From: Saprospiraceae bacterium
Lineage (GTDB): Bacteria; Bacteroidota; Bacteroidia; Chitinophagales; Saprospiraceae
Reading direction: 5' to 3'
Length of the DNA stretch: 64,000 nucleotides
NCBI GenBank assembly: GCA_017985675.1
Contig: JAGNXB010000001.1
Location: 364,743 to 428,742, forward strand
The first letter of the stretch is position 1, and every line of letters starts with the position of its first letter. Below, piece after piece: positions 5,476 to 38,314 of the stretch. Below the pieces are notes generated by a model, which ran no database searches, was not told where the DNA came from, and was given only the letters and a program-made list of their open reading frames with translations. A program made the position numbers and the translations under genes.

Positions 5476-6633
5476 ATGAAAACTGTGAAGGATTTTCTCA
5501 GGCAAAAAATAGGCATTTTAGGTGGTGGCCAGTTGGGCAAAATGCTTTGCCAATCAGGCTCTCGTTGGGGCTTAGATATGCATGTTCTGGATCATGACCC
5601 AACATTTCCTGCAGGACAAGTGAATCCACATTTTGTGATTGGAGATTTTAATAATGAAGAGGATGTTTTTTCATTTGGTATAGACAAGGATGTTATTACA
5701 ATCGAGATTGAGCATGTTGCCGTTTCCGCTTTAGAACGTTTACAGCAGGAAGGTGTAGCAGTTTATCCTGATCCGTCTGTATTGCGAATTATCCAGGATA
5801 AAGGAGAGCAAAAGCAGTTTTTTACTCGACATGGTCTACCTACCTCACCTTTTCGGCTGTATCCGGATAAACAGGCCATTATTGAGGCTATTGCTAATGG
5901 TTCTGAATTGCTTCCTTTTGTTCAAAAGACTCGAACTGCTGGTTATGATGGTAGAGGGGTTGCGGTCATCTATGCTCAGAATGAATTAGAAAAGCTATTG
6001 GAGGGGCCTTCTATTATAGAGGATTTGATCACTATGCAACGAGAAGTGGCGGTGATTGTTGCCCGTGATGTTAAAGGGGGCATCCGCGCTTTTCCGGCAG
6101 TTGAAATGCGTTTCAATATGGATGCTAACCTGGTAGAAATGTTGCTGTGTCCGGCTAATTTAACGCCAGCACAGGAAGAAGAGGCACAGGCTTTAGCGAT
6201 TGAGGTAGCGTCCATTTTTCAGACAGTGGGTCTCTTAGCTGTTGAAATGTTTCAGACACCTGATGGCCACTTTTTAGTCAATGAAGTTGCACCCAGGCCT
6301 CATAATAGTGGGCATCACACCATTGAATGTTGTGATATTTCGCAATATGATCAGCACCTTCGGGCTATTACTGGTCTGCCATTGGGCGAACCAATATTGA
6401 ATAGACCCGGTGTTATGATCAATATTCTTGGCGAACCTGGTTATGCTGGAGCGCCGATATACAGCGGTTGGGAGGCCTGTTTGCAAATTCCGGGGGTTCA
6501 TATGCATTTGTATGGTAAGTCTGAGACCCGTCCTTATCGAAAAATGGGCCATGTGACTATTACATCCGATACCTTAGAGGAAGCAATTCAGAAGGCCGAA
6601 AGAGTCCAAAACACACTTAAAGTTATTGCATGA
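5476..6633 (+). CDS. purK: N5-carboxyaminoimidazole ribonucleotide synthase
   Basis: ATP-grasp protein with N-terminal IGILGGGQLGKM. The ATG at 5476 is preferred over the TTG at 5467. Its stop overlaps the purE start (ATGA). Confidence 0.9.
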   Translation: MKTVKDFLRQKIGILGGGQLGKMLCQSGSRWGLDMHVLDHDPTFPAGQVNPHFVIGDFNNEEDVFSFGIDKDVITIEIEHVAVSALERLQQEGVAVYPDPSVLRIIQDKGEQKQFFTRHGLPTSPFRLYPDKQAIIEAIANGSELLPFVQKTRTAGYDGRGVAVIYAQNELEKLLEGPSIIEDLITMQREVAVIVARDVKGGIRAFPAVEMRFNMDANLVEMLLCPANLTPAQEEEAQALAIEVASIFQTVGLLAVEMFQTPDGHFLVNEVAPRPHNSGHHTIECCDISQYDQHLRAITGLPLGEPILNRPGVMINILGEPGYAGAPIYSGWEACLQIPGVHMHLYGKSETRPYRKMGHVTITSDTLEEAIQKAERVQNTLKVIA

Positions 6634-14969: not shown

Positions 14970-17798
14970 ATGACTGATATTACCTATTACGGTGAGCTAT
15001 TGTGGCCCGGCCAACTTGGACATCTGGCCATTTTGGCTTCATTTGTATTTGCATTACTAACTGCATTTGCATATGCCAAATCAGAAAAAAAGGCACAAGA
15101 CCATCAATGGTTAAGGCTTGGACGCATAGCCTTTTCGATACATGGAATAATGACTTTTATGGTGATAGGGTTATTATTTTACATAATGCTCAACAAGCAT
15201 TACGAGTATCAGTATGCTTGGGCTCACGTTTCTGATGATCTGGCCTTCAAATATATGTTTTCTGCATTTTGGGAAGATCAGGCTGGTAGTTTTTTACTTT
15301 GGGCGTTTTGGCACATACTATTGGGTTGGGTCCTTATCAAGGTTTCCGGCAAATGGGAAGCCCCGGTGATGGTTTCTTTATCTTTTGTGCAGGCCTTTAT
15401 CGTGTCTATGTTGTTGGGCATTTATTTGATACCGGGTAGTGACGCCATCAAGTTGGGCTTCAATCCCTTTGTATTATTGCGCGAAACTATGGATGCCCCC
15501 ATTTTCGCAAATGCTGATTATCTAAAACTTATTACAGGTAAGGGGCTAAACCCACTCCTCCAGAATTATTGGATGACGATACACCCCCCTACCCTTTTTC
15601 TGGGGTTTGCAAGTACTACGATCCCGTTTTGCTTTGCAATTGCTGCGCTTTGGCGGAGAGATTATAGAAGTTGGTTAAAACCCGTCTTGCCATGGGCATT
15701 ATTTAGTGGGTCAATTTTGGGTATAGGCATCCTTATGGGTGCAGCCTGGGCATATGAAGCACTGTCATTTGGAGGTTATTGGGCATGGGATCCTGTTGAA
15801 AACATGTCACTGGTACCTTGGCTGATTCTGATTGCAGGAATTCATACCAACCTGGTAGCAAAACAAAATGGACACTCCATCCGCGCTACCCTAATTTTTT
15901 ATGGTTTTTCTTTTCTGTTGGTATTGTTTTCTACATTTCTCACAAGGAGCGGCGTGTTACAAGACAGTTCGGTTCATGCATTTACAGAAATGGGCCTGGA
16001 GTGGCAATTAGTAGCATTCATTGTATTTTTTAGTGTTTGGTTTTTATGGCAATTCTTTCGGCAATATGCATCTATTGAAGTTAAGCAGGAAGAGGAATCC
16101 GTATCATCCAGGGAGTTTTGGATGTTCATAGGAAGTCTTGTTCTCCTATTTTCAGCAATTCTCATTACGTTTACCACTTCCATTCCGGTCTATAATAAGA
16201 TTGCCGACCTGTTGGGCTGGATGATCAGCCAGGATATGAGCGAATTTCATCGAAGTATGCCTCTTGATCCCATAGAACATTATAATAGATATCAATTTTG
16301 GATAGCGTTATTTATTGCAATCCTCAGCGGATTTGGCCAATATCTTCGATACAACATCTCACCTTCAAAGGATAAATGGAAAAGTCTGGGCATCCGGTTA
16401 GGCTTAATTTTATTGGGATCCGCATGTTTTACATGGTTGACCTGGTACTGGCTCCAATATTCTGGTTGGGCTTTTCATTTTTTAGTTGGAAGTGCCTGGT
16501 TTACAGTAATTGCGAATACGGACTACCTGATTTCATTTATTCGTGGCAACCTGTGTAGTGGGGCTTCCACATTATCACATATTGGTTTTGGACTTATGGT
16601 TATTGGTATTGTTGCTTCCGGTGTTAACAAGCAACACATATCCCAAAACCGGTTTGCGATGGAAGGCATTTTATCCGAGGATATAGTCAATAAAAACGTC
16701 CTATTATTCAAGGAGGCACCTTTATTAATCAACGGTTATAAAGTAACTTATCTGTCAGATACGTTAGTTGGGCTTATCCGAACCTATGAAATCAAATATG
16801 AGCGTCTCGGTGAAAGGGGTGAAATATTAGACTCCTTTAGACTATATCCCAACATACAATTTGATAAAGATTTTCAAAAGCAAGCTGCTTCAAATCCAAG
16901 CACAAAACGGTATTGGGCTAAGGATATTTTTTCTCATATAGCAGGGTTGCCTCCTGAACATGGAGATGCAGAGCGAGCCAAAGCCAAAGAGGACAGCCTT
17001 AAATACAAGTCATGGTTTATGATGCCGGGCAAGTCTGTTCAATCGGATCGTTTGAAATTGACACTTGATTCCTGGAGTAGTTCGGCGCAGCATCCGGATT
17101 ATGTACCTGAACTAAATGACATTGTGGTATCAGCGCATATTACTGTGCAAGAAACGGAGAGCGATACAAGTTATAGTCTATCGCCTTTTATTGTTTTGCG
17201 TGAAAACTTAGTCTACTCTTATCCGGACAAAAATGATCCTGTTGAGGTGAAAGTCAGGCTCAATGATGGTCTTTTTACCGGGTATCTGGTTCTTGATTCC
17301 CTTTTAAATTATGAGACAATTCAGCTACTCCAAGGTGAAACAAGGACCATTTCAGGTACTTCAATAAAACTTGAAGGTTTTGACAAAGAACCAGTTCATC
17401 CTCAGTATGTTAAAGAAGGCGAAGATATTGCTGTTGCTGCACGTCTACGAATTGCAGATGCAGATCAACCTGATTTTTCGGAGGTACAAGAGCCTGTTTT
17501 TTTAATCCGTCAGGGGCAAACCTACAATATAAAGACTTTTTCTCCGAGTTCAGGCATTCATATTCGTTTTATCAAGCTGGATCCTAACGATGGCAGGATC
17601 ACACTTTTAGTTGCCAAGCAACCAGGGTTTGAGGGAATGCCTGTTGAGATAGCTGAAAACTATAAACGAGAGGATTACATCGTCTTGGAAGCTATTATCT
17701 TTCCCGGCATCAATTTTTTCTGGTTAGGGAGCCTGTTTATGATGATTGGTCTTGGATTGGGGGCGTGGTATCGAAGGAAAGAAGCGCTCTCATCATGA
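14970..17798 (+). CDS. ccmF: Cytochrome c-type biogenesis protein CcmF-like (heme lyase) with long C-terminal extension
   Basis: Polytopic protein with the tryptophan-rich WWD motif (GGYWAWDPVENMSLVPW). At 942 aa it is about 300 aa longer than classical CcmF. The extra soluble region precedes a final TM helix. Confidence 0.8.
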   Translation: MTDITYYGELLWPGQLGHLAILASFVFALLTAFAYAKSEKKAQDHQWLRLGRIAFSIHGIMTFMVIGLLFYIMLNKHYEYQYAWAHVSDDLAFKYMFSAFWEDQAGSFLLWAFWHILLGWVLIKVSGKWEAPVMVSLSFVQAFIVSMLLGIYLIPGSDAIKLGFNPFVLLRETMDAPIFANADYLKLITGKGLNPLLQNYWMTIHPPTLFLGFASTTIPFCFAIAALWRRDYRSWLKPVLPWALFSGSILGIGILMGAAWAYEALSFGGYWAWDPVENMSLVPWLILIAGIHTNLVAKQNGHSIRATLIFYGFSFLLVLFSTFLTRSGVLQDSSVHAFTEMGLEWQLVAFIVFFSVWFLWQFFRQYASIEVKQEEESVSSREFWMFIGSLVLLFSAILITFTTSIPVYNKIADLLGWMISQDMSEFHRSMPLDPIEHYNRYQFWIALFIAILSGFGQYLRYNISPSKDKWKSLGIRLGLILLGSACFTWLTWYWLQYSGWAFHFLVGSAWFTVIANTDYLISFIRGNLCSGASTLSHIGFGLMVIGIVASGVNKQHISQNRFAMEGILSEDIVNKNVLLFKEAPLLINGYKVTYLSDTLVGLIRTYEIKYERLGERGEILDSFRLYPNIQFDKDFQKQAASNPSTKRYWAKDIFSHIAGLPPEHGDAERAKAKEDSLKYKSWFMMPGKSVQSDRLKLTLDSWSSSAQHPDYVPELNDIVVSAHITVQETESDTSYSLSPFIVLRENLVYSYPDKNDPVEVKVRLNDGLFTGYLVLDSLLNYETIQLLQGETRTISGTSIKLEGFDKEPVHPQYVKEGEDIAVAARLRIADADQPDFSEVQEPVFLIRQGQTYNIKTFSPSSGIHIRFIKLDPNDGRITLLVAKQPGFEGMPVEIAENYKREDYIVLEAIIFPGINFFWLGSLFMMIGLGLGAWYRRKEALSS

Positions 17799-28464: not shown

Positions 28465-29607
28465 CTAATAAACGGCAAGTGAAGGGTCAATTTTTCGTGC
28501 GTATTCCAAAATTCCACCCTTAAGGTTGACCAGATTTGAAAATTGTCCCTGTTCCTGAAGCAATCGGATTGCTTTTGCACTTCGGACCCCACTTCGACAT
28601 TGAACAATTACTTTGCGATCCCTTTGAATACGGTCACTTTGTGTGGTAATGTCTCCTAATGGAATCAGTTCTCCTCCCATTTGAGCAATTTCAAATTCAT
28701 ACAACTCCCGAACATCTATAAGTTGATAGGGAATCCCCGAAGTTTTTAGCTCGACAAATTCTTCAACAGTAATCTCAGCTACATCGTCCTCTAAAATGTT
28801 GATTCCACAAAATATCTGGTAATCAATCAATTCCGTTATGCTGGTGTTTGCCTGTTTGCGAACATTCAGCGTTCTAGTCTGGAATGTTGCCGCATCAAAG
28901 AGAAAAATACGTCCTGCCAGTGGTTCGCCTACATCGGTGATGACTTTAATCACTTCCAAAGCCTGCATACTGCCAATGATACCAGGCAGTACACCTAAAA
29001 CACCACCCTCTGAACAACTCGGCACAAGTCCCGGTGGCGGTGGTTCAGGAAATAAATCCCGATAATTTGGCCCGCGTTCTGTGGAAGAAACAGGATAGTT
29101 GAATACAGAGACCTGGCCTTCAAATTGGAAGATCGATGCATATACATTTACCTTATTTTCAAGCACACAAGCATCGTTGACAAGGTACCTTGTTGGGAAA
29201 TTGTCCGTACCGTCGGCTACAACATCGTAATCTCGGATAATCTCTCTCGCATTACTACGATCCAGCCGGGTGGGATGTACAGTGACCTGGATAAATGGAT
29301 TGAGTTTTAGAATCCTGGCTTTCGCCTGTTCTGCTTTCGACAGACCTACGTCCTCTGTGGTAAATAGCACTTGCCGCTGCAAATTGCTGTCATCGACCTG
29401 ATCGAAATCTACTATCCCTATATGTCCGACACCAGCCGCTGCTAGGTAAAGCAAGACAGGACTTCCAAGACCTCCGGCACCTATGACAAGAACTTTGGAT
29501 GCTTTAAGTTTCAATTGAGCTTCCAATCCAAACTCTGGGATCAGAATATGACGGGAATACCTCGCATATTCAGCCGCATTTAGCGAAATGGTATCAGTTT
29601 TTCGCAT
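28465..29607 (-). CDS. moeZ: MoeB/ThiF-type adenylyltransferase fused to C-terminal rhodanese domain (MoeZ-like sulfur-carrier activating enzyme)
   Basis: RYSRHILIPEFG, VIGAGGLGSP nucleotide loop, and a C-terminal rhodanese loop CRSGVRS. The ATG at 29607 is preferred. The GTG at 29637 (track start) would overlap the Gly-Gly codons of the upstream gene. Confidence 0.85.
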   Translation of the reverse strand: MRKTDTISLNAAEYARYSRHILIPEFGLEAQLKLKASKVLVIGAGGLGSPVLLYLAAAGVGHIGIVDFDQVDDSNLQRQVLFTTEDVGLSKAEQAKARILKLNPFIQVTVHPTRLDRSNAREIIRDYDVVADGTDNFPTRYLVNDACVLENKVNVYASIFQFEGQVSVFNYPVSSTERGPNYRDLFPEPPPPGLVPSCSEGGVLGVLPGIIGSMQALEVIKVITDVGEPLAGRIFLFDAATFQTRTLNVRKQANTSITELIDYQIFCGINILEDDVAEITVEEFVELKTSGIPYQLIDVRELYEFEIAQMGGELIPLGDITTQSDRIQRDRKVIVQCRSGVRSAKAIRLLQEQGQFSNLVNLKGGILEYARKIDPSLAVY

Positions 29608-29902
29608 TGCTGTTGGTATTAAGTGTTGATATTCCACCAGCTATCGCAGGTACTATACTAATCACGGTTGTTTCATCAACCGTTGTTTCACCGCCCTGGA
29701 GGTCAAGATAGTCGTTGTCGCCAACATAAATTCTGACAAAGGACCTGATCTTTTCATCCTTATCCTTGAGATGTTTCCCTAGATCCGGATAAAGGTCAAT
29801 GAGCGCACCAAGTGCTTTATCTACGCTCGATGCTGAAACAGTAATGGATGACTGGTTCCCTGCAAATTTTCGCAACGGTGTGGGTATGAAAATGGTAGGC
29901 AT
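29594..29902 (-). CDS. cysO: MoaD/ThiS-family ubiquitin-like sulfur carrier (CysO-like) with a 12-residue extension after Gly-Gly
   Basis: The first 90 residues end in ...ISIVPAIAGG, the typical MoaD/ThiS C-terminus. The ORF then continues ISTLNTNSNAKN before a TGA at 29594-29596 (frame checked by hand). Confidence 0.8.
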   Translation of the reverse strand: MPTIFIPTPLRKFAGNQSSITVSASSVDKALGALIDLYPDLGKHLKDKDEKIRSFVRIYVGDNDYLDLQGGETTVDETTVISIVPAIAGGISTLNTNSNAKN

Positions 29903-29914
29903 ATTAGGTTTATT

Positions 29915-30331
29915 TTAATGGTTAACAGTTTCTTCAAAAAATTGATGGTTGTCTTCATCCAGTCGCCAACTTCTGATTTCTTTGACCACTTTTGGAAAGA
30001 CGGAAATAATGACATAGGAAAAGAAGGGCATTGCCTGAGCCAAATCATGTTCAGAGGCTACAGCAGGGTGCAATGGGTGCGAATGATAAACGCCCAACAA
30101 TTGGGTGTTAGTTTGGAGCGCATGTTGCTCTGCTCGGATATAATCCAGCGGATGAATAAGAAAACGTCTCCTTTTATCGCCGGTTTTGTCATTGTGGACC
30201 GGGCTCCAGGATTGAGCTATTCGTTCGCCTTCATCTACCCCAAACAAAAAACCGCAGCATTCATCAGGAAAATCCTTCAAACCATGTTTGAAAATACCGT
30301 TGAGAACGTGTTTTTGAATTCTGATCTGCAT
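29915..30331 (-). CDS. mec: JAMM/MPN+ (Mov34) metallohydrolase, Mec+-like
   Basis: Complete JAMM motif: E in PDECCGF, then HSHPLHPAVASEHD (HxHx7Sx2D). Confidence 0.85.
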   Translation of the reverse strand: MQIRIQKHVLNGIFKHGLKDFPDECCGFLFGVDEGERIAQSWSPVHNDKTGDKRRRFLIHPLDYIRAEQHALQTNTQLLGVYHSHPLHPAVASEHDLAQAMPFFSYVIISVFPKVVKEIRSWRLDEDNHQFFEETVNH

Positions 30332-30333
30332 AC

Positions 30334-31287
30334 TTATAGATTGAGAGATGCAAGAAGATCACCGTACTTGTCGGCGTTATCAGGTAGTAAAGTGACTATT
30401 GATCCAGATTGTAGTGAAGCTGCTAATCGAGTGGCTCCTGCAAGGTTGGCAGCAGCAGAAGGACTGAGCAACAACCCCTCATGGCGGGCTACAAATCGGA
30501 TGAGGTCATAAGCTTCCTCTGTTGATACGTGCGAGATGTCATTCGCCAAATGGGAATCATAAATGGCAGGCACTTTTGCCGTTTCCAAATCTTTCCAACC
30601 CTCTAATCCATGCATTGGGCCATCAGGTTGTAAGGCCAGCAGATGGATACTCTGTTTCATCTCTTTTAAATATCTTCCGGTACCAATAAATGATCCTGTC
30701 GTTCCAAGGCCACAAACAAAATGAGAGACTTCACCACCTGTTTGCCGAAATATTTCTCTGGACGTTCCTAAATAGTGAGATTTCCAGTTGTCATTATTGG
30801 CGTATTGATTGGCATAGAAATATTTGCCCGGGTGCTCCAAGTATATACCTGCTGCCATCTCCTGTGCGCCATCCGTACCTGAGAAGGGGTCCGTTAGTAT
30901 CACGTCAACTCCCAATGCTTTTAGAATGGATTTCCGCTCTTTGGATGCATTTTCTGGAAGACAAAGGGTTACCGGAATACCTAATGAAGCGGCTATGGCA
31001 CCAAAAGCAATACCGGTATTGCCACTTGATGCATCTAGTAATCGTTTGTCTTTAGATAGTTCGCCAGTAGTAATTGCTTGTTCAATGATTCGGAATGCAG
31101 CACGTGCTTTTACACTCCCTCCCAATTGATGCCATTCTAGTTTAGCATAGATAACGACACCCGTTTTTGATGAAAGGGAGTTAAAACGATGCATTGGTGT
31201 ATTACCTATAAGTTTCCCAACATTGAATAACTTTTTTGTAATGGAAGTGGAGAATTTAATAACCGGATTTTGTAGGATCGTTTCCAT
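30334..31287 (-). CDS. cysM: PLP-dependent cysteine synthase family protein (CysM-like)
   Basis: Motifs: PLP lysine in GGSVKARAA, SSGNTGIA, GLGTTGSFIG. It is the first gene of an operon with the JAMM hydrolase, the sulfur carrier and the E1-like enzyme. Confidence 0.85.
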   Translation of the reverse strand: METILQNPVIKFSTSITKKLFNVGKLIGNTPMHRFNSLSSKTGVVIYAKLEWHQLGGSVKARAAFRIIEQAITTGELSKDKRLLDASSGNTGIAFGAIAASLGIPVTLCLPENASKERKSILKALGVDVILTDPFSGTDGAQEMAAGIYLEHPGKYFYANQYANNDNWKSHYLGTSREIFRQTGGEVSHFVCGLGTTGSFIGTGRYLKEMKQSIHLLALQPDGPMHGLEGWKDLETAKVPAIYDSHLANDISHVSTEEAYDLIRFVARHEGLLLSPSAAANLAGATRLAASLQSGSIVTLLPDNADKYGDLLASLNL

Positions 31288-31298
31288 ATGTTGGTATT

Positions 31299-31328
31299 AA
31301 AAAGGGCCATTCGTTTGCTGAATGGCCC
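31299..31328 (-). terminator. Proximal attenuator terminator, ending 12 nt upstream of the cysM ATG
   Basis: The minus strand reads GGGCCATTC-agcaaac-GAATGGCCC followed by TTTTT. The stem is 9 bp perfect with a 7-nt loop. A terminator inside a 5-prime leader is the attenuator signature. Confidence 0.7.
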
Positions 31329-31367
31329 TTGTGTTCATTAGGAAAAAGAGGAAGTATAAAGGTTAAC

Positions 31368-31439
31368 TTACAGCGTTGAGGATGTTGATTGACAACAACA
31401 ACAGCAGGTGTAAACTGAACTAATAACCTTTATATTCAT
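31368..31439 (-). CDS. Proximal Cys-rich leader peptide (23 aa: MNIKVISSVYTCCCCCQSTSSTL)
   Basis: Hand translation of the minus strand: ATG at 31439, five consecutive Cys codons TGC TGT TGT TGT TGT at 31392-31406, TAA at 31368-31370. It is too short for the ORF track and lies in the cysM leader region. Confidence 0.6.
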   Translation of the reverse strand: MNIKVISSVYTCCCCCQSTSSTL

Positions 31440-31464
31440 TTGTTTATACTTTAATTTGGACCAT

Positions 31465-31494
31465 AAAAAAAGGCCACCCCGGTGTGGAATGGCC
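31465..31494 (-). terminator. Distal attenuator terminator
   Basis: The minus strand reads GGCCAttCC-acaccgg-GGTGGCC followed by TTTTTTT (5+2 bp stem with a 2-nt bulge, then U7). No upstream minus-strand gene needs terminating here, because the flanking gene is divergent. Confidence 0.6.
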
Positions 31495-31520
31495 ATTTTT
31501 GTTTTATTTCACATATGTAA

Positions 31521-31580
31521 TTACCATTCCATCGCAAGAGGGATACAACAGCAACACATTTGATTCATTTGCAATATCAT
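31521..31580 (-). CDS. Distal Cys-rich leader peptide (19 aa: MILQMNQMCCCCIPLAMEW)
   Basis: Hand translation: ATG at 31580 (in-frame alternatives at 31568 and 31559), four consecutive Cys codons TGT TGC TGT TGT at 31545-31556, TAA at 31521-31523. Confidence 0.55.
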   Translation of the reverse strand: MILQMNQMCCCCIPLAMEW

Positions 31581-31654
31581 AGTGCAATGTTAAGGGTATT
31601 GCAGTGGACTAGTCAACACCTGTCTCAAATCTCGAGTATATTTAAATTATAAGT

Positions 31655-31837
31655 ATGCGTAAAGTATTAAATAAAAATATATTAGGCACCGATAAAGATA
31701 TCCTAAAAAAGGGAGAAGACTATTATATTGAAGAGGGAAAAACAGTTTTTACGGCAATGTTTTTAAAAAAAAGAGGTAAATGCTGTAAAAGTGGTTGTAG
31801 ACATTGTCCATACCAGTGCGACAAAAAGGTCAAATAA
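31655..31837 (+). CDS. Small Cys-rich protein (DUF5522-like, CCxxGCRHCPY motif)
   Basis: 60 aa with a C-terminal KCCKSGCRHCPYQC. This resembles a small conserved Bacteroidota family. Confidence 0.55.
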   Translation: MRKVLNKNILGTDKDILKKGEDYYIEEGKTVFTAMFLKKRGKCCKSGCRHCPYQCDKKVK

Positions 31838-35059: not shown

Positions 35060-38000
35060 ATGAGAAACCCTTTACTAAGACTTTTGATGTTAGTGCTTGC
35101 ACTAGGCGCATTTACCGAAAGTGCCATTGCTCAGGGCACAACAACGGCTTCCCTTAATGGTCAAATCATTGATCAGGCTGGAGAGTTATTGATAGGAGCT
35201 ACAGTTGTAGCTCTACATGAACCATCCGGCACATCTTATGGCACGGTGTCCAATGTCAATGGCTACTATCGTATGGCTAATCTCCGTGTGGGTGGACCTT
35301 ATCGCATTTCAGTGACTTACACCGGATACGGCGAAGTTGTCCTTGAAGGAGTAAATCTACGACTAGGTGAATCAAGGACATTAGATTTCAAACTGGATGA
35401 GTCTGCTACTGAATTAATGACCATTGAAATCATCGGAAAGGCTGGAACGGCAGGCCAGTCATCAGGGGCTAGTACCCAAATATCAACTGAGGCCATTGAA
35501 GCTATGCCTACCTTGAATCGGGACCTTGATGATTATGTGAAGCTTACACCACAAGCCGGTGGCTATGGTGACGGAACAGCATTTGCCGGCACCAATAACC
35601 GCTACAATGCCATTTATATTGACGGTGCGGTAAACAACGACGTTTTTGGTCTTTCCTCTTCAGGTACCAACGGTGGGCAGACGGGTATTTCCCCATTTTC
35701 TATTGATATTATTGATCAGATTCAAGTTGTATTATCTCCTTATGATGTTGCCTTGGGTGGTTTTGCCGGTGGTGGCATCAACGCAGTGACAAAATCAGGT
35801 ACCAACAATTTGGAGGGCACTGCTTACTACTTCATGCAAAATGAAAATTTGATTGGCGAAACCAACAAAACCCTTACTAATCGCACGGGAAGTCCTGCCT
35901 CGAAAGTGGCTGAATTCACAAAAAGTACTTACGGCGCTTCTCTGGGAGGTCCTATCATTCGCGACAGGCTTTTCTTTTTTGTCAATGCAGAGATTCAAAA
36001 AGACGAAACACCTGCGCCTTTTGATTTTGCTACCTACACGGGCAACTCAAGCCAGCAAGAGTTAGAAGAACTTCGTACTTTCCTTAATGAAAACTACGAA
36101 TATGATCCGGGTACATTTGGAAGTGTTTCCGATGAATTGGATGGTTTAAAATTGTTCGGTAAACTGGATTTCAATATCAATCGAAACCACCGTCTTACGC
36201 TGCGTCACAACTACACTAAAGCGGAGCAATTAGATCGCTCTGTGAGCTCTCCAAACACTATCAATTTTTCGAACAATGGGATTTTCTTCCCAAGTACGAC
36301 CAATTCAACCGCTTTAGAGTTAAATAGCCGGTTTGGCGATAAGATGTCCAATAATCTGATCCTCGGTTACACCACAGTAAATGATGATAGAGACCCTATC
36401 GGAGGTGACTTTCCTTTCCTTATTATTGAAGATGGACCATCTAAATTGATCCGAATTGGTTCAGAGGAGTTTTCAACCGCCAATGGACTTGAACAATCGA
36501 TTTTCACCATTACGGACAACTTTAAACTATACCGTGGTGCACATACCATTACAATTGGTACACATAACGAGTTTTATGATATCTACAATCTATTTATAGG
36601 ACAGAATTATGGAACCTATCGTTACACCAGTATAGATGCATTTACATCCGGTGCTACTGCCAAAGAATATGACCGAGCTTATTCATTGGTTGATAATTTG
36701 ACTGGTGATGGTTCTGCTGCTGCTGCTGACTTCAAAGCAATCCAGCTTGGTTTTTATTTGCAGGACGAATGGGCGATTTCCCCTAAGTTTACCCTGACTG
36801 GAGGTGTCCGTGTGGATGTGCCTATTCTGACAATTGATCCTGTTGAGGATACCTATTTTAATGAGACGGCCTTACCCAAAATGCAAGCGGCATATGCTAT
36901 TGCAAACGACATCGAAGCAGGTAAAGCCCCAGATGGCCAAATCATGGTGTCTCCACGGCTTGGTTTCAATTTTGATATCAATGGTGATAAAAAGAACGTC
37001 CTGCGTGGTGGTTTAGGCGTATTCACCAGTCGCATTCCTTTTGTTTGGCCGGGAGCAATGTACAACAACAATGGTCTGACGCTGGGACGTGTTGATGAAA
37101 CAAACGCTGGTGTGCCTATCACATTCAACCCTGATGTAAATGATCAGTACAAACACCCCAACTTCTCCTTGCCATCAGGTGATATCAACATCTTCACAAA
37201 GGATTTCAAATATCCACAGATTTTCCGTACTAATTTGGCATTTGATACTGAATTACCTGGTGGAATCACAGCAACATTTGAAGGCCTTTATTCAAAAACC
37301 CTCAATAATGTGCTTTATACTAACGTCAATTCGGAACCAATCGTTAAGAACAATTGGACCAATACTCCGGATGATCGTATTGTTTATACACGTAAGGCAA
37401 TTGACACTAAGTATACGTCCGTCTATGTGGGTTCTAATACAAATGAAGGTTATACCTACACCCTGACAGCCGCATTTGCAAAAAAGTTCAATTTTGGTCT
37501 TAATGCCACATTAGCTTATTCGTATGGTGATGCACAAGCTGTAAACGAAGGTACTTCTTCCCAAAACTCCTCCCAGTGGCGTGGCCAAATGACGCAGCGT
37601 GATGGCCGAAATGCCCCAGTTTTGGGTCGGTCTGATTTTGCCCTTGGGCATCGTGTCATTTCTTCATTGAGCTACAGACAAAACTGGACACGTGACAAAA
37701 ATGTGGCTACCACACTTACATTGTTTTATGATGGAATGACGGGCAGCCCATACTCCTACGTGATCGGCGGTAACAGTGCACGTAATATTAACAACGACCT
37801 TGGAAGTACAAGTTCTAATCGCGCGTTGGTATGGGTGCCAGCTGATGCCTCTGAAATCAATCTTGTACCTTACACAGTGAATAATGTTACCATTTCTGCT
37901 GAAGAACAATGGGAAAATCTGAATAACTTCATTGAAAATGATCCTTACCTCAGTGAAAATCGTGGTCAGTATGCGGATAAAAATTCAAACTGGATGCCGT

Positions 38001-38314
38001 ATACTTCATTCCTTGACTTGTCACTTCGTCAGGATTTCGGTGTCAATGTTGGAGGTAAAAACCACAAATTCCAGATTAGCTGGGATGTATTTAATCTAGC
38101 TAATTTGCTCAATAAGGAATGGGGCGTCAGGTATTCAATACCAGGCGACTTCAATAACTATTACCTCTACGAACTTGCTGGATTCGAAACTGATGGCACG
38201 ACGCCTCGTTTTAACTACCGTGGTGGTGATAATGTGGATAAAGATGCTTTAAATATCTCTGACAACGCATCCCGTTGGAAAATGCGTCTAGGACTGCGGT
38301 ATATATTCAATTAA
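35060..38314 (+). CDS. TonB-dependent outer membrane receptor with N-terminal carboxypeptidase-regulatory-like domain (Oar-like)
   Basis: Signal peptide, CarbopepD_reg-like segment (GQIIDQAGELLIGATVVAL...NGYYRMANLRVGGPYRISV), plug region, long beta-barrel, and a C-terminal aromatic end ...LGLRYIFN. No SusD-like partner is adjacent. Confidence 0.85.
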   Translation: MRNPLLRLLMLVLALGAFTESAIAQGTTTASLNGQIIDQAGELLIGATVVALHEPSGTSYGTVSNVNGYYRMANLRVGGPYRISVTYTGYGEVVLEGVNLRLGESRTLDFKLDESATELMTIEIIGKAGTAGQSSGASTQISTEAIEAMPTLNRDLDDYVKLTPQAGGYGDGTAFAGTNNRYNAIYIDGAVNNDVFGLSSSGTNGGQTGISPFSIDIIDQIQVVLSPYDVALGGFAGGGINAVTKSGTNNLEGTAYYFMQNENLIGETNKTLTNRTGSPASKVAEFTKSTYGASLGGPIIRDRLFFFVNAEIQKDETPAPFDFATYTGNSSQQELEELRTFLNENYEYDPGTFGSVSDELDGLKLFGKLDFNINRNHRLTLRHNYTKAEQLDRSVSSPNTINFSNNGIFFPSTTNSTALELNSRFGDKMSNNLILGYTTVNDDRDPIGGDFPFLIIEDGPSKLIRIGSEEFSTANGLEQSIFTITDNFKLYRGAHTITIGTHNEFYDIYNLFIGQNYGTYRYTSIDAFTSGATAKEYDRAYSLVDNLTGDGSAAAADFKAIQLGFYLQDEWAISPKFTLTGGVRVDVPILTIDPVEDTYFNETALPKMQAAYAIANDIEAGKAPDGQIMVSPRLGFNFDINGDKKNVLRGGLGVFTSRIPFVWPGAMYNNNGLTLGRVDETNAGVPITFNPDVNDQYKHPNFSLPSGDINIFTKDFKYPQIFRTNLAFDTELPGGITATFEGLYSKTLNNVLYTNVNSEPIVKNNWTNTPDDRIVYTRKAIDTKYTSVYVGSNTNEGYTYTLTAAFAKKFNFGLNATLAYSYGDAQAVNEGTSSQNSSQWRGQMTQRDGRNAPVLGRSDFALGHRVISSLSYRQNWTRDKNVATTLTLFYDGMTGSPYSYVIGGNSARNINNDLGSTSSNRALVWVPADASEINLVPYTVNNVTISAEEQWENLNNFIENDPYLSENRGQYADKNSNWMPYTSFLDLSLRQDFGVNVGGKNHKFQISWDVFNLANLLNKEWGVRYSIPGDFNNYYLYELAGFETDGTTPRFNYRGGDNVDKDALNISDNASRWKMRLGLRYIFN

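Follow-up and report, generated by a model that had tools for sequence, protein, structure and literature searches.

The classical leader-peptide attenuators are those of the trp, his, leu, thr, ilv and pheA systems of Proteobacteria, and cysteine is the missing case among these terminator-based regulators. Leaders with sensors in series are also known, in that tandem riboswitches and tandem T-boxes place two complete sensing and termination modules in a single leader and provide a steeper or tighter response. In the Bacteroidetes, the Bacteroid-trp motif is said to be a Trp-codon attenuator. This motif (RF01692) was described as a cis-regulatory leader of an amino-acid operon in that group (Weinberg 2010, PMC2864571). 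For cysteine, leader peptides without terminators were predicted in 2005 upstream of actinobacterial cys operons (PMC1262725), and polycysteine leaderless small open reading frames (sORFs) of mycobacteria were later shown to attenuate by sequestering the Shine-Dalgarno region, in a study whose authors regarded cysteine attenuation mediated by upstream open reading frames (uORFs) as previously undescribed (Canestrari et al. 2020, bioRxiv 10.1101/834739). The uORFC-8-2 motif, found upstream of cysS in Rhodobacterales, combines tandem Cys codons with an intrinsic terminator and is predicted to be an attenuator (PMC8632094). Here we describe a leader in a 64-kb stretch of DNA from a Saprospiraceae bacterium (the whole stretch is called the window) which very probably acts as a ribosome-mediated leader-peptide transcription attenuator that reads the availability of cysteinyl-tRNA, with two units in series placed before an operon of the cysM/JAMM/CysO/MoeZ type.

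The leader is read on the minus strand, in the gap between the ATG of cysM (31287) and the neighbouring gene on the plus strand, and its features are collected in Table 1. An earlier, sequence-only reading of this gap had proposed two tandem units, each formed by a Cys-codon mini-ORF and a hairpin followed by a U-run. All of these are present on the minus strand, except that the distal stem, implied by the motif GGUGGCC to be of 7 base pairs (bp), is a stem of 9 bp formed by GGCCAUUCC (31494-31486) and GGGGUGGCC (31480-31472). The distal terminator, T1, begins 26 nucleotides (nt) past the stop codon of uORF1. The same reading had held that the distal hairpin has no gene to terminate, and this stands: neither hairpin ends a gene, because the upstream neighbour is a genuine divergent gene of the DUF5522 family. 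Nor is the leader an assembly artefact, since five metagenomic contigs, each assembled independently, carry it without a single difference. Runs of at least four TGY codons occur four times in the window, both strands considered, when 0.1 would be expected from shuffled sequences, and two of the four sit in the cysM leader, 150 nt apart. The other two (17429-17440 and 36715-36726, both on the plus strand) give no ATG-initiated Cys mini-ORF, and the second of them lies, in the Leu frame, inside an ORF of 1084 amino acids (35060..38314).

The distal unit satisfies the 1:2 / 2:3 / 3:4 architecture of a classical attenuator, with three mutually exclusive helices of comparable strength. In the free RNA the Cys codons pair with positions 31536-31512 (helix 1:2, -14.5 kcal/mol, z -2.7); the antiterminator strand UGGAAUGGU pairs with GCCAUUCCA (31493-31485) of the T1 5' arm (helix 2:3, -13.1 kcal/mol as a hairpin and -14.0 to -14.3 kcal/mol as a duplex, z -4.1); and T1 itself folds with -15.8 kcal/mol. 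In folds of the distal transcript cut before the T1 3' arm, with the ribosome represented by a mask of 30 nt, helix 2:3 is still formed when the mask covers any Cys codon of uORF1 and is lost when the mask stands at the stop codon (31523-31521), because the final base of the UGGAAUGGU strand is the first base of that codon. The folds behave as the model of attenuation requires. According to this model, transcription would proceed from a conserved promoter, and a ribosome would translate uORF1 behind the polymerase. When Cys-tRNA is ample, the ribosome would reach the uORF1 stop codon and cover UGGAAUGGU, whereupon T1 would form and transcription would stop. When Cys-tRNA is scarce, the ribosome would stall on the four Cys codons, the antiterminator strand would pair with the emerging T1 5' arm and the polymerase would read through; with no ribosome on the leader, the Cys codons would pair with region 2 and T1 would again form. 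The proximal unit would represent a second Cys-codon test ahead of its own terminator, T2, and both tests would have to be passed. Two serial tests would be expected to lower basal expression and to sharpen the response.

Similar leaders recur widely in relatives. The comparison set comprised 80 genomic and 80 metagenomic loci carrying CysM relatives of 51-61% identity, to which were added six loci of the closest relatives found in the protein database, with 64-68% CysM identity and the same gene order. Recurrence was counted in the 155 loci whose upstream sequence reached 250 nt or more, a mini-ORF being an ATG- or GTG-initiated frame on the cysM strand with at least three Cys in six residues. 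Such a mini-ORF precedes cysM in 123 of the 155 loci (about 80%), and two of them are found in 27 loci, mostly from Saprospiraceae and Lewinellaceae. Mini-ORFs that contain CCCC number 60 in 33 kb of upstream sequence on the same strand, none on the opposite strand and five in 925 kb elsewhere. In a separate count, CCCC was present in 93 of the 155 loci. Runs of other residues are not recurrent except those of Leu, which recur because Leu is the alternative (+2) frame of the same TGY run. The TGY runs can be read from an ATG to a stop codon in the Cys frame in 114 cases out of 129, exclusively so in 74, and exclusively in the Leu frame in a single case. The carriers include Saprospiraceae, Lewinellaceae, Chitinophagaceae, Flammeovirgaceae, Microscillaceae, Sphingobacteriales, Balneolaceae and a metagenome-assembled genome (MAG) of the Flavobacteriales; Flexithrix dorotheae DSM 6795 (L006) and Fodinibius salsisoli (L048) are cultured examples. 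A uORF1 of 19 codons with Cys at codons 9-12 is common to the window, to L161, to L163 and L164 (which start with GTG and are the closest single-unit relatives) and to L166, and this family is separated from one of 21-codon leaders by an indel of exactly 3 nt.

Conservation extends to the hairpins and to their alternative pairing. The Cys mini-ORF is followed by a hairpin and a T-run in 72 of 74 units, and in 121 of 139 when unique units are counted, at a median distance of 31 nt past the stop codon. When 32 diverse units were aligned with MAFFT, the helix of the terminator proved 96% paired, with compensatory changes in seven of its nine pairs; its covariation score was 0.554 against 0.252 in shuffles, and none of 500 shuffles attained the observed value. 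The terminator 5' arm has its complement in a segment located 9-16 nt 3' of the last Cys codon; the antiterminator duplex so formed has a median energy of -13 kcal/mol, with z below -2 relative to shuffles in 69% of units, and the segment fits the arm of its own terminator better than foreign arms without a common 6-mer (mean -3.2 kcal/mol, Wilcoxon p 7e-16). Families of arms are accordingly matched by their own complements, at frequencies of 0.70 for CCUUUC/GAAAGG, 0.74 for CUCCAC/GUGGAG, 0.75 for CCAUUC/GAAUGG and 1.00 for CUCACC/GGUGAG. The antiterminator is 79% paired on a MAFFT alignment that was not fitted to structure, and its column pair 35-102 is AU in 13 sequences and UA in seven, with a score again reached by 0 of 500 shuffles. 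The peptide endings ...MEW, ...GKEW and ...RKG arise when GGAAUGG or GGAAAGG is translated, and the tails of the peptides look conserved because they encode the pairing segment of the antiterminator RNA. The comparison of orthologues that had been proposed with the sequence-only reading finds Cys-codon runs, terminators and compensatory changes all maintained in relatives, and these, together with the Cys frame, the covarying antiterminator and the tandem loci, support its view of a cysteine-sensing leader-peptide attenuator. In the distal units of some loci (L036, L040, L042, L051, L085, L088, L112 and L045), a conserved ACAACAAATTATAATC just 5' of the terminator is complementary to UUGUUGU of the Cys codons (alignment columns about 76-96), and may provide an extra anti-antiterminator pairing in that subfamily.

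The promoter of the leader is likewise conserved. Twelve leaders of the window type show an invariant TTGAC, a spacer of 21 nt, an invariant TAA..TTG and exactly 4 nt before the ATG or GTG. The sigma-ABfr -7 motif of Bacteroidetes is TAnnTTTG (PMC7366714), which the box of the window resembles, and a scan with the sigma-70 consensus reads the same promoter as TTGACT-18-TAACAT. Under either reading, the predicted transcription start coincides with the uORF1 AUG or is no more than about 3 nt away from it, and uORF1 is probably near-leaderless, given that only 4 nt separate the conserved box from its start codon. A box is present in 67 first units, and its distance from the start codon has a peak at 4-5 nt (26 units). 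The box is present in just two of 23 proximal units, and uORF2 of the window has none of its own; proximal units would therefore be reached by read-through, and uORF2 presumably only by read-through of T1.

Table 1. Features of the cysM leader, the downstream operon and the divergent neighbour (window coordinates).
Feature	Coordinates	Strand	Description
DUF5522 gene	31655..31837	+	divergent neighbour; Pfam E 5e-19
TTGACT	31611..31616	-	-35/-33-like promoter element; TTGAC invariant in 12-sequence alignment
TAACATTG	31585..31592	-	promoter box resembling the Bacteroidetes -7 motif; TAA..TTG invariant in 12-sequence alignment
uORF1	31580..31521	-	distal leader ORF; 19 codons and stop, MILQMNQMCCCCIPLAMEW
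uORF1 sensor codons	31556-31545	-	TGT TGC TGT TGT, four consecutive Cys; part of region 1
UGGAAUGGU	31531-31523	-	antiterminator strand of the distal unit; region 2
T1	31494-31465	-	distal intrinsic terminator; 5' arm 31494-31486, loop 31485-31481, 3' arm 31480-31472, U7 31471-31465
AUGGUCC	31464-31458	-	candidate long-range T2 antiterminator strand; pairs with GGGCCAU 31328-31322
uORF2	31439..31368	-	proximal leader ORF; 23 codons and stop, MNIKVISSVYTCCCCCQSTSSTL
Helix A	31437-31424	-	first codons of uORF2; pairs with helix B
uORF2 Cys codons	31406-31392	-	run of five
Helix B	31365-31352	-	starts 2 nt past the uORF2 stop codon; pairs with helix A
T2	31330-31299	-	proximal intrinsic terminator; 5' arm 31330-31320, loop 31319-31313, 3' arm 31312-31302, U5 31303-31299
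Operon	31287..28465	-	four genes with Pfam matches; gene order same in relatives
cysM-like gene	31287..30334	-	pyridoxal-phosphate enzyme (PALP), cysteine synthase; Pfam
JAMM/Prok-JAB	30331..29915	-	protease; Pfam
ThiS/CysO-like	29902..29594	-	carrier; Pfam
ThiF + rhodanese	29637..28465	-	MoeZ-like; mechanical ORF; Pfam

The proximal unit ends with the stronger of the two terminators. T2, the core of which is formed by GGGCCAUUC (31328-31320) and GAAUGGCCC (31312-31304), folds with -18.4 kcal/mol (z -5.7) and stops 11 nt short of the cysM ATG. In folds cut before the T2 3' arm, AUGGUCC appears paired with GGGCCAU, and this pairing stacks on a helix A:B of 14 bp, the combined duplex having an energy of -19.3 kcal/mol (z -4.0). 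Purely as a hypothesis, this lineage-specific candidate could serve as a long-range antiterminator for T2: a ribosome stalled on the Cys codons of uORF2 would sit in the loop and leave both strands free, and one that had reached the uORF2 stop codon would mask helix B. Helix A:B was rejected as a feature common to proximal units, its median z being -0.5 over 22 of them. Another candidate is a relay from unit 1, in which the T1 3' arm, freed by antitermination, would pair with the T2 5' arm (-15.3 kcal/mol); the pairing is available because both terminators share the 5' arm GGCCAUUC, at which the two units align. The idea that GGCCATTC is a dispersed repeat or mobile terminator was rejected, with five matches against 2.9 expected, three of the five being in this leader. 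An ATG at 31496-31494 (minus strand), in the T1 5' arm, opens a frame of 42 codons that runs in-frame into uORF2, and similar extensions are found in L005, L010 and L067. Use of this extension is unlikely because its ATG lies within the T1 stem, where it is probably inaccessible, but it could admit ribosomes to uORF2 when T1 is melted.

Several points weigh against an attenuator of this kind. The model has to presume that transcription and translation are coupled in Saprospiraceae. Full-length equilibrium folds always prefer the terminators, and read-through must for that reason be kinetic, as it is in the classical attenuators. One family of terminator arms, CCCUUC (n = 9), has no simple complement (match 0.00), and the statistical tests given above carry no correction for phylogenetic relatedness. 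A local canonical antiterminator for T2 was sought and not found (-4.1 kcal/mol, z +1.4), and the long-range candidate has no comparative support, the sole close sequences being identical to the window and offering no variation. The claim that both units are complete is consequently borne out for the distal one, in which all three alternative helices are present, and only in part for the proximal one, which has no recognisable canonical antiterminator; in the same way, folding of the leader RNA, proposed as a check, yields mutually exclusive structures in the distal unit and a long-range candidate only in the proximal unit.

These features of T2 bear on an alternative that we consider unlikely, though it is the best of the rivals, namely that only the distal unit senses cysteine and that the proximal unit is a partly decayed or recently duplicated copy, its terminator being either fixed and leaky or passively antiterminated by the state of the distal unit. 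In its favour are the lack of a separate antiterminator in the proximal unit, the 5' arm common to T1 and T2, at which the units align, the possible pairing of the freed T1 3' arm with the T2 5' arm, and the fact that one unit suffices in L163 and L164, the nearest relatives of the single-unit type. However, uORF2 retains its ATG, its stop codon and five in-frame Cys codons, tandem Cys units are found in 27 loci, and in several of these (L005, L012, L016, L045, L047 and L063) the proximal unit has a good local antiterminator of its own. Within L161, and likewise within L166, the two terminators have no arm in common, and the relay was on this account rejected as a general device.

The preferred reading, of two translated units that respond to cysteinyl-tRNA, has also to be set against explanations in which the mini-ORFs are not sensors. 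It could be proposed that the UGY-triplet runs are sites for a TRAP-like RNA-binding protein, or part of a ligand-sensing RNA, and that the hairpins are controlled without translation of the mini-ORFs. Triplet repeats beside a terminator do resemble TRAP sites, and the third-position T/C variation of the runs is no proof of the Cys frame by itself, because it is synonymous in the Leu frame too. This proposal is nevertheless highly improbable in view of the in-frame ATG or GTG and stop codon conserved round the run, the predominance of the Cys frame counted above, the indel of exactly 3 nt between leader families, the location of the antiterminator, which overlaps the stop codon and is set off from the Cys codons by the length of a ribosome footprint, and the lack of any Rfam match. 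There is equally little to recommend the proposal that the mini-ORFs encode functional Cys-rich micropeptides (metal- or redox-active, for example) with hairpins that merely end their transcripts, or that the distal transcript of about 115 nt is a trans-acting small RNA, for although each unit consists of a promoter or ORF followed by a terminator, which would give a short RNA, and the neighbouring DUF5522 gene is also Cys-rich, the peptides have only the Cys run in common, their C-terminal parts track RNA pairing, every unit is placed immediately before cysteine or sulfur genes that are read in the same direction, and a separate promoter is lacking in proximal units.

Cys mini-ORFs are not restricted to positions directly before cysM. 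In several loci without one at that position, a peroxiredoxin gene lies between leader and cysM, and the Cys mini-ORF stands ahead of the peroxiredoxin gene. Further CCCC mini-ORFs on the minus strand were observed at L053:1882-1986 and 6268-6345, L117:576-665, L119:298-402, L133:424-507 and L153:444-694, and also in L107, L139 and L142. The genes behind these further mini-ORFs, judged by N-terminal sequence only, are the peroxiredoxin gene preceding cysM, a gene similar to O-acetylhomoserine sulfhydrylase (MetY-like) and a rhodanese/SseA-like gene divergent from cysM, which suggests a cysteine regulon of several operons. Leaders of a Balneolaceae type (MSCCCCCCS, ...CCCCCCS) stop right after the Cys run (L105:1338-1367, L127, L145, L106 and L066, a group that also includes L056, L071, L096, L131 and L136); a scan of 140 nt found no terminator behind them, and their read-out may be of another kind, either translational or dependent on Rho. 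A broader reading, which we put forward tentatively and would not yet favour, is that of a phylum-wide regulon sensed through cysteinyl-tRNA in Saprospiraceae, Lewinellaceae, Chitinophagaceae, Cytophagales and Sphingobacteriales, and in Balneolaceae as well, in which near-leaderless polycysteine mini-ORFs may gate terminators before the operon of the CysO-dependent cysteine synthase and before peroxiredoxin, MetY-like and rhodanese genes. The sensor may have been doubled in Saprospiraceae, and T2 of the window may be opened by the long-range helix around a stalled ribosome or by the relay from unit 1, and not by a local antiterminator. The leaders appear to form a widespread and undescribed family of the Bacteroidota. 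Such a family would give, for a large and little-studied phylum, a regulator of sulfur and cysteine metabolism that can be tested directly, would imply that a phylum lacking Shine-Dalgarno sequences couples transcription with translation and uses near-leaderless initiation, would offer natural tandem attenuators for the study of how serial sensors shape a response, and would supply an annotation rule for more than 100 unannotated leaders.

The downstream operon has the genes of the CysO-thiocarboxylate route to cysteine, known from Mycobacterium tuberculosis, and the CysM of the window is 100% identical to a protein from a Saprospiraceae MAG. The ThiS/CysO-like protein runs 12 residues beyond its Gly-Gly (..AIAGG-ISTLNTNSNAKN), a tail that fits the need for the adjacent JAMM protease to expose a C-terminal GG. 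The operon of the closest relatives carries an inserted Peptidase_M23 gene, which separates the ThiS-like gene from the ThiF gene (L161:4353-5747; L164:3065-4459) and is not found in the window. The DUF5522 neighbour is small and Cys-rich, with the C-terminal sequence CCKSGCRHCPY, and its place beside the Cys leader, in divergent orientation, is conserved within this lineage (L165:801-995, L166:1951-2136, L169:651-833); the gene may share its intergenic control region with the leader.

Searches for known families returned none over this region, as the sequence-only reading had anticipated: Rfam gave no match at gathering thresholds for the window and 16 related loci, and a permissive scan returned matches at chance level only, the best being Phe_leader with 21.1 bits against a gathering score of 55. 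For the Bacteroidota, no cysteine attenuator was found in the literature (a literature coverage that is incomplete, so that absence is not proof). That reading had also placed cysteine outside the classical cases, which has to be qualified by the cysteine precedents in other phyla (10.1101/834739, PMC1262725, PMC8632094). The Bacteroid-trp motif RF01692 serves a different operon and amino acid, and no match to it was seen here. The uORFC-8-2 motif likewise joins tandem Cys codons to an intrinsic terminator and is predicted to act through the ribosome, but it has two Cys codons instead of four to nine, precedes a tRNA synthetase gene, is present in Alphaproteobacteria as a single unit and is known from prediction only. 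Tandem riboswitches and T-boxes differ in their sensors, which are RNA aptamers or tRNA-binding RNAs and not translated codon runs.

The mycobacterial sORFs, the sole Cys-codon leaders studied experimentally, resemble the present leaders in carrying runs of Cys codons in a very short first ORF before operons of cysteine metabolism, in occurring at several loci per genome (in relatives of the window, before peroxiredoxin-cysM, MetY-like and rhodanese genes too) and in the logic of ribosome stalling on Cys codons that is proposed here; their leaderless start may be shared as well. They act on translation, however, without a terminator, the Shine-Dalgarno region of the gene that follows being paired with the Cys tract, whereas the leaders described here have an intrinsic terminator in each unit and a covarying antiterminator, and belong to a phylum without Shine-Dalgarno sequences. 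With the classical attenuators, the locus has in common a short leader ORF rich in codons for the end product, an intrinsic terminator ahead of the first biosynthetic gene and, in the distal unit, the alternative helices 1:2, 2:3 and 3:4 and a stop codon so placed that a terminating ribosome would mask region 2. It differs from them in the amino acid, in its occurrence in Bacteroidota, where initiation is not led by Shine-Dalgarno sequences, in a probably near-leaderless start and in the two units in series, and no sequence relationship to a classical leader is seen in Rfam. The mechanism proposed is a known one; what is new is that it would serve cysteine, in Bacteroidota, with two units in tandem and a start that is probably near-leaderless.

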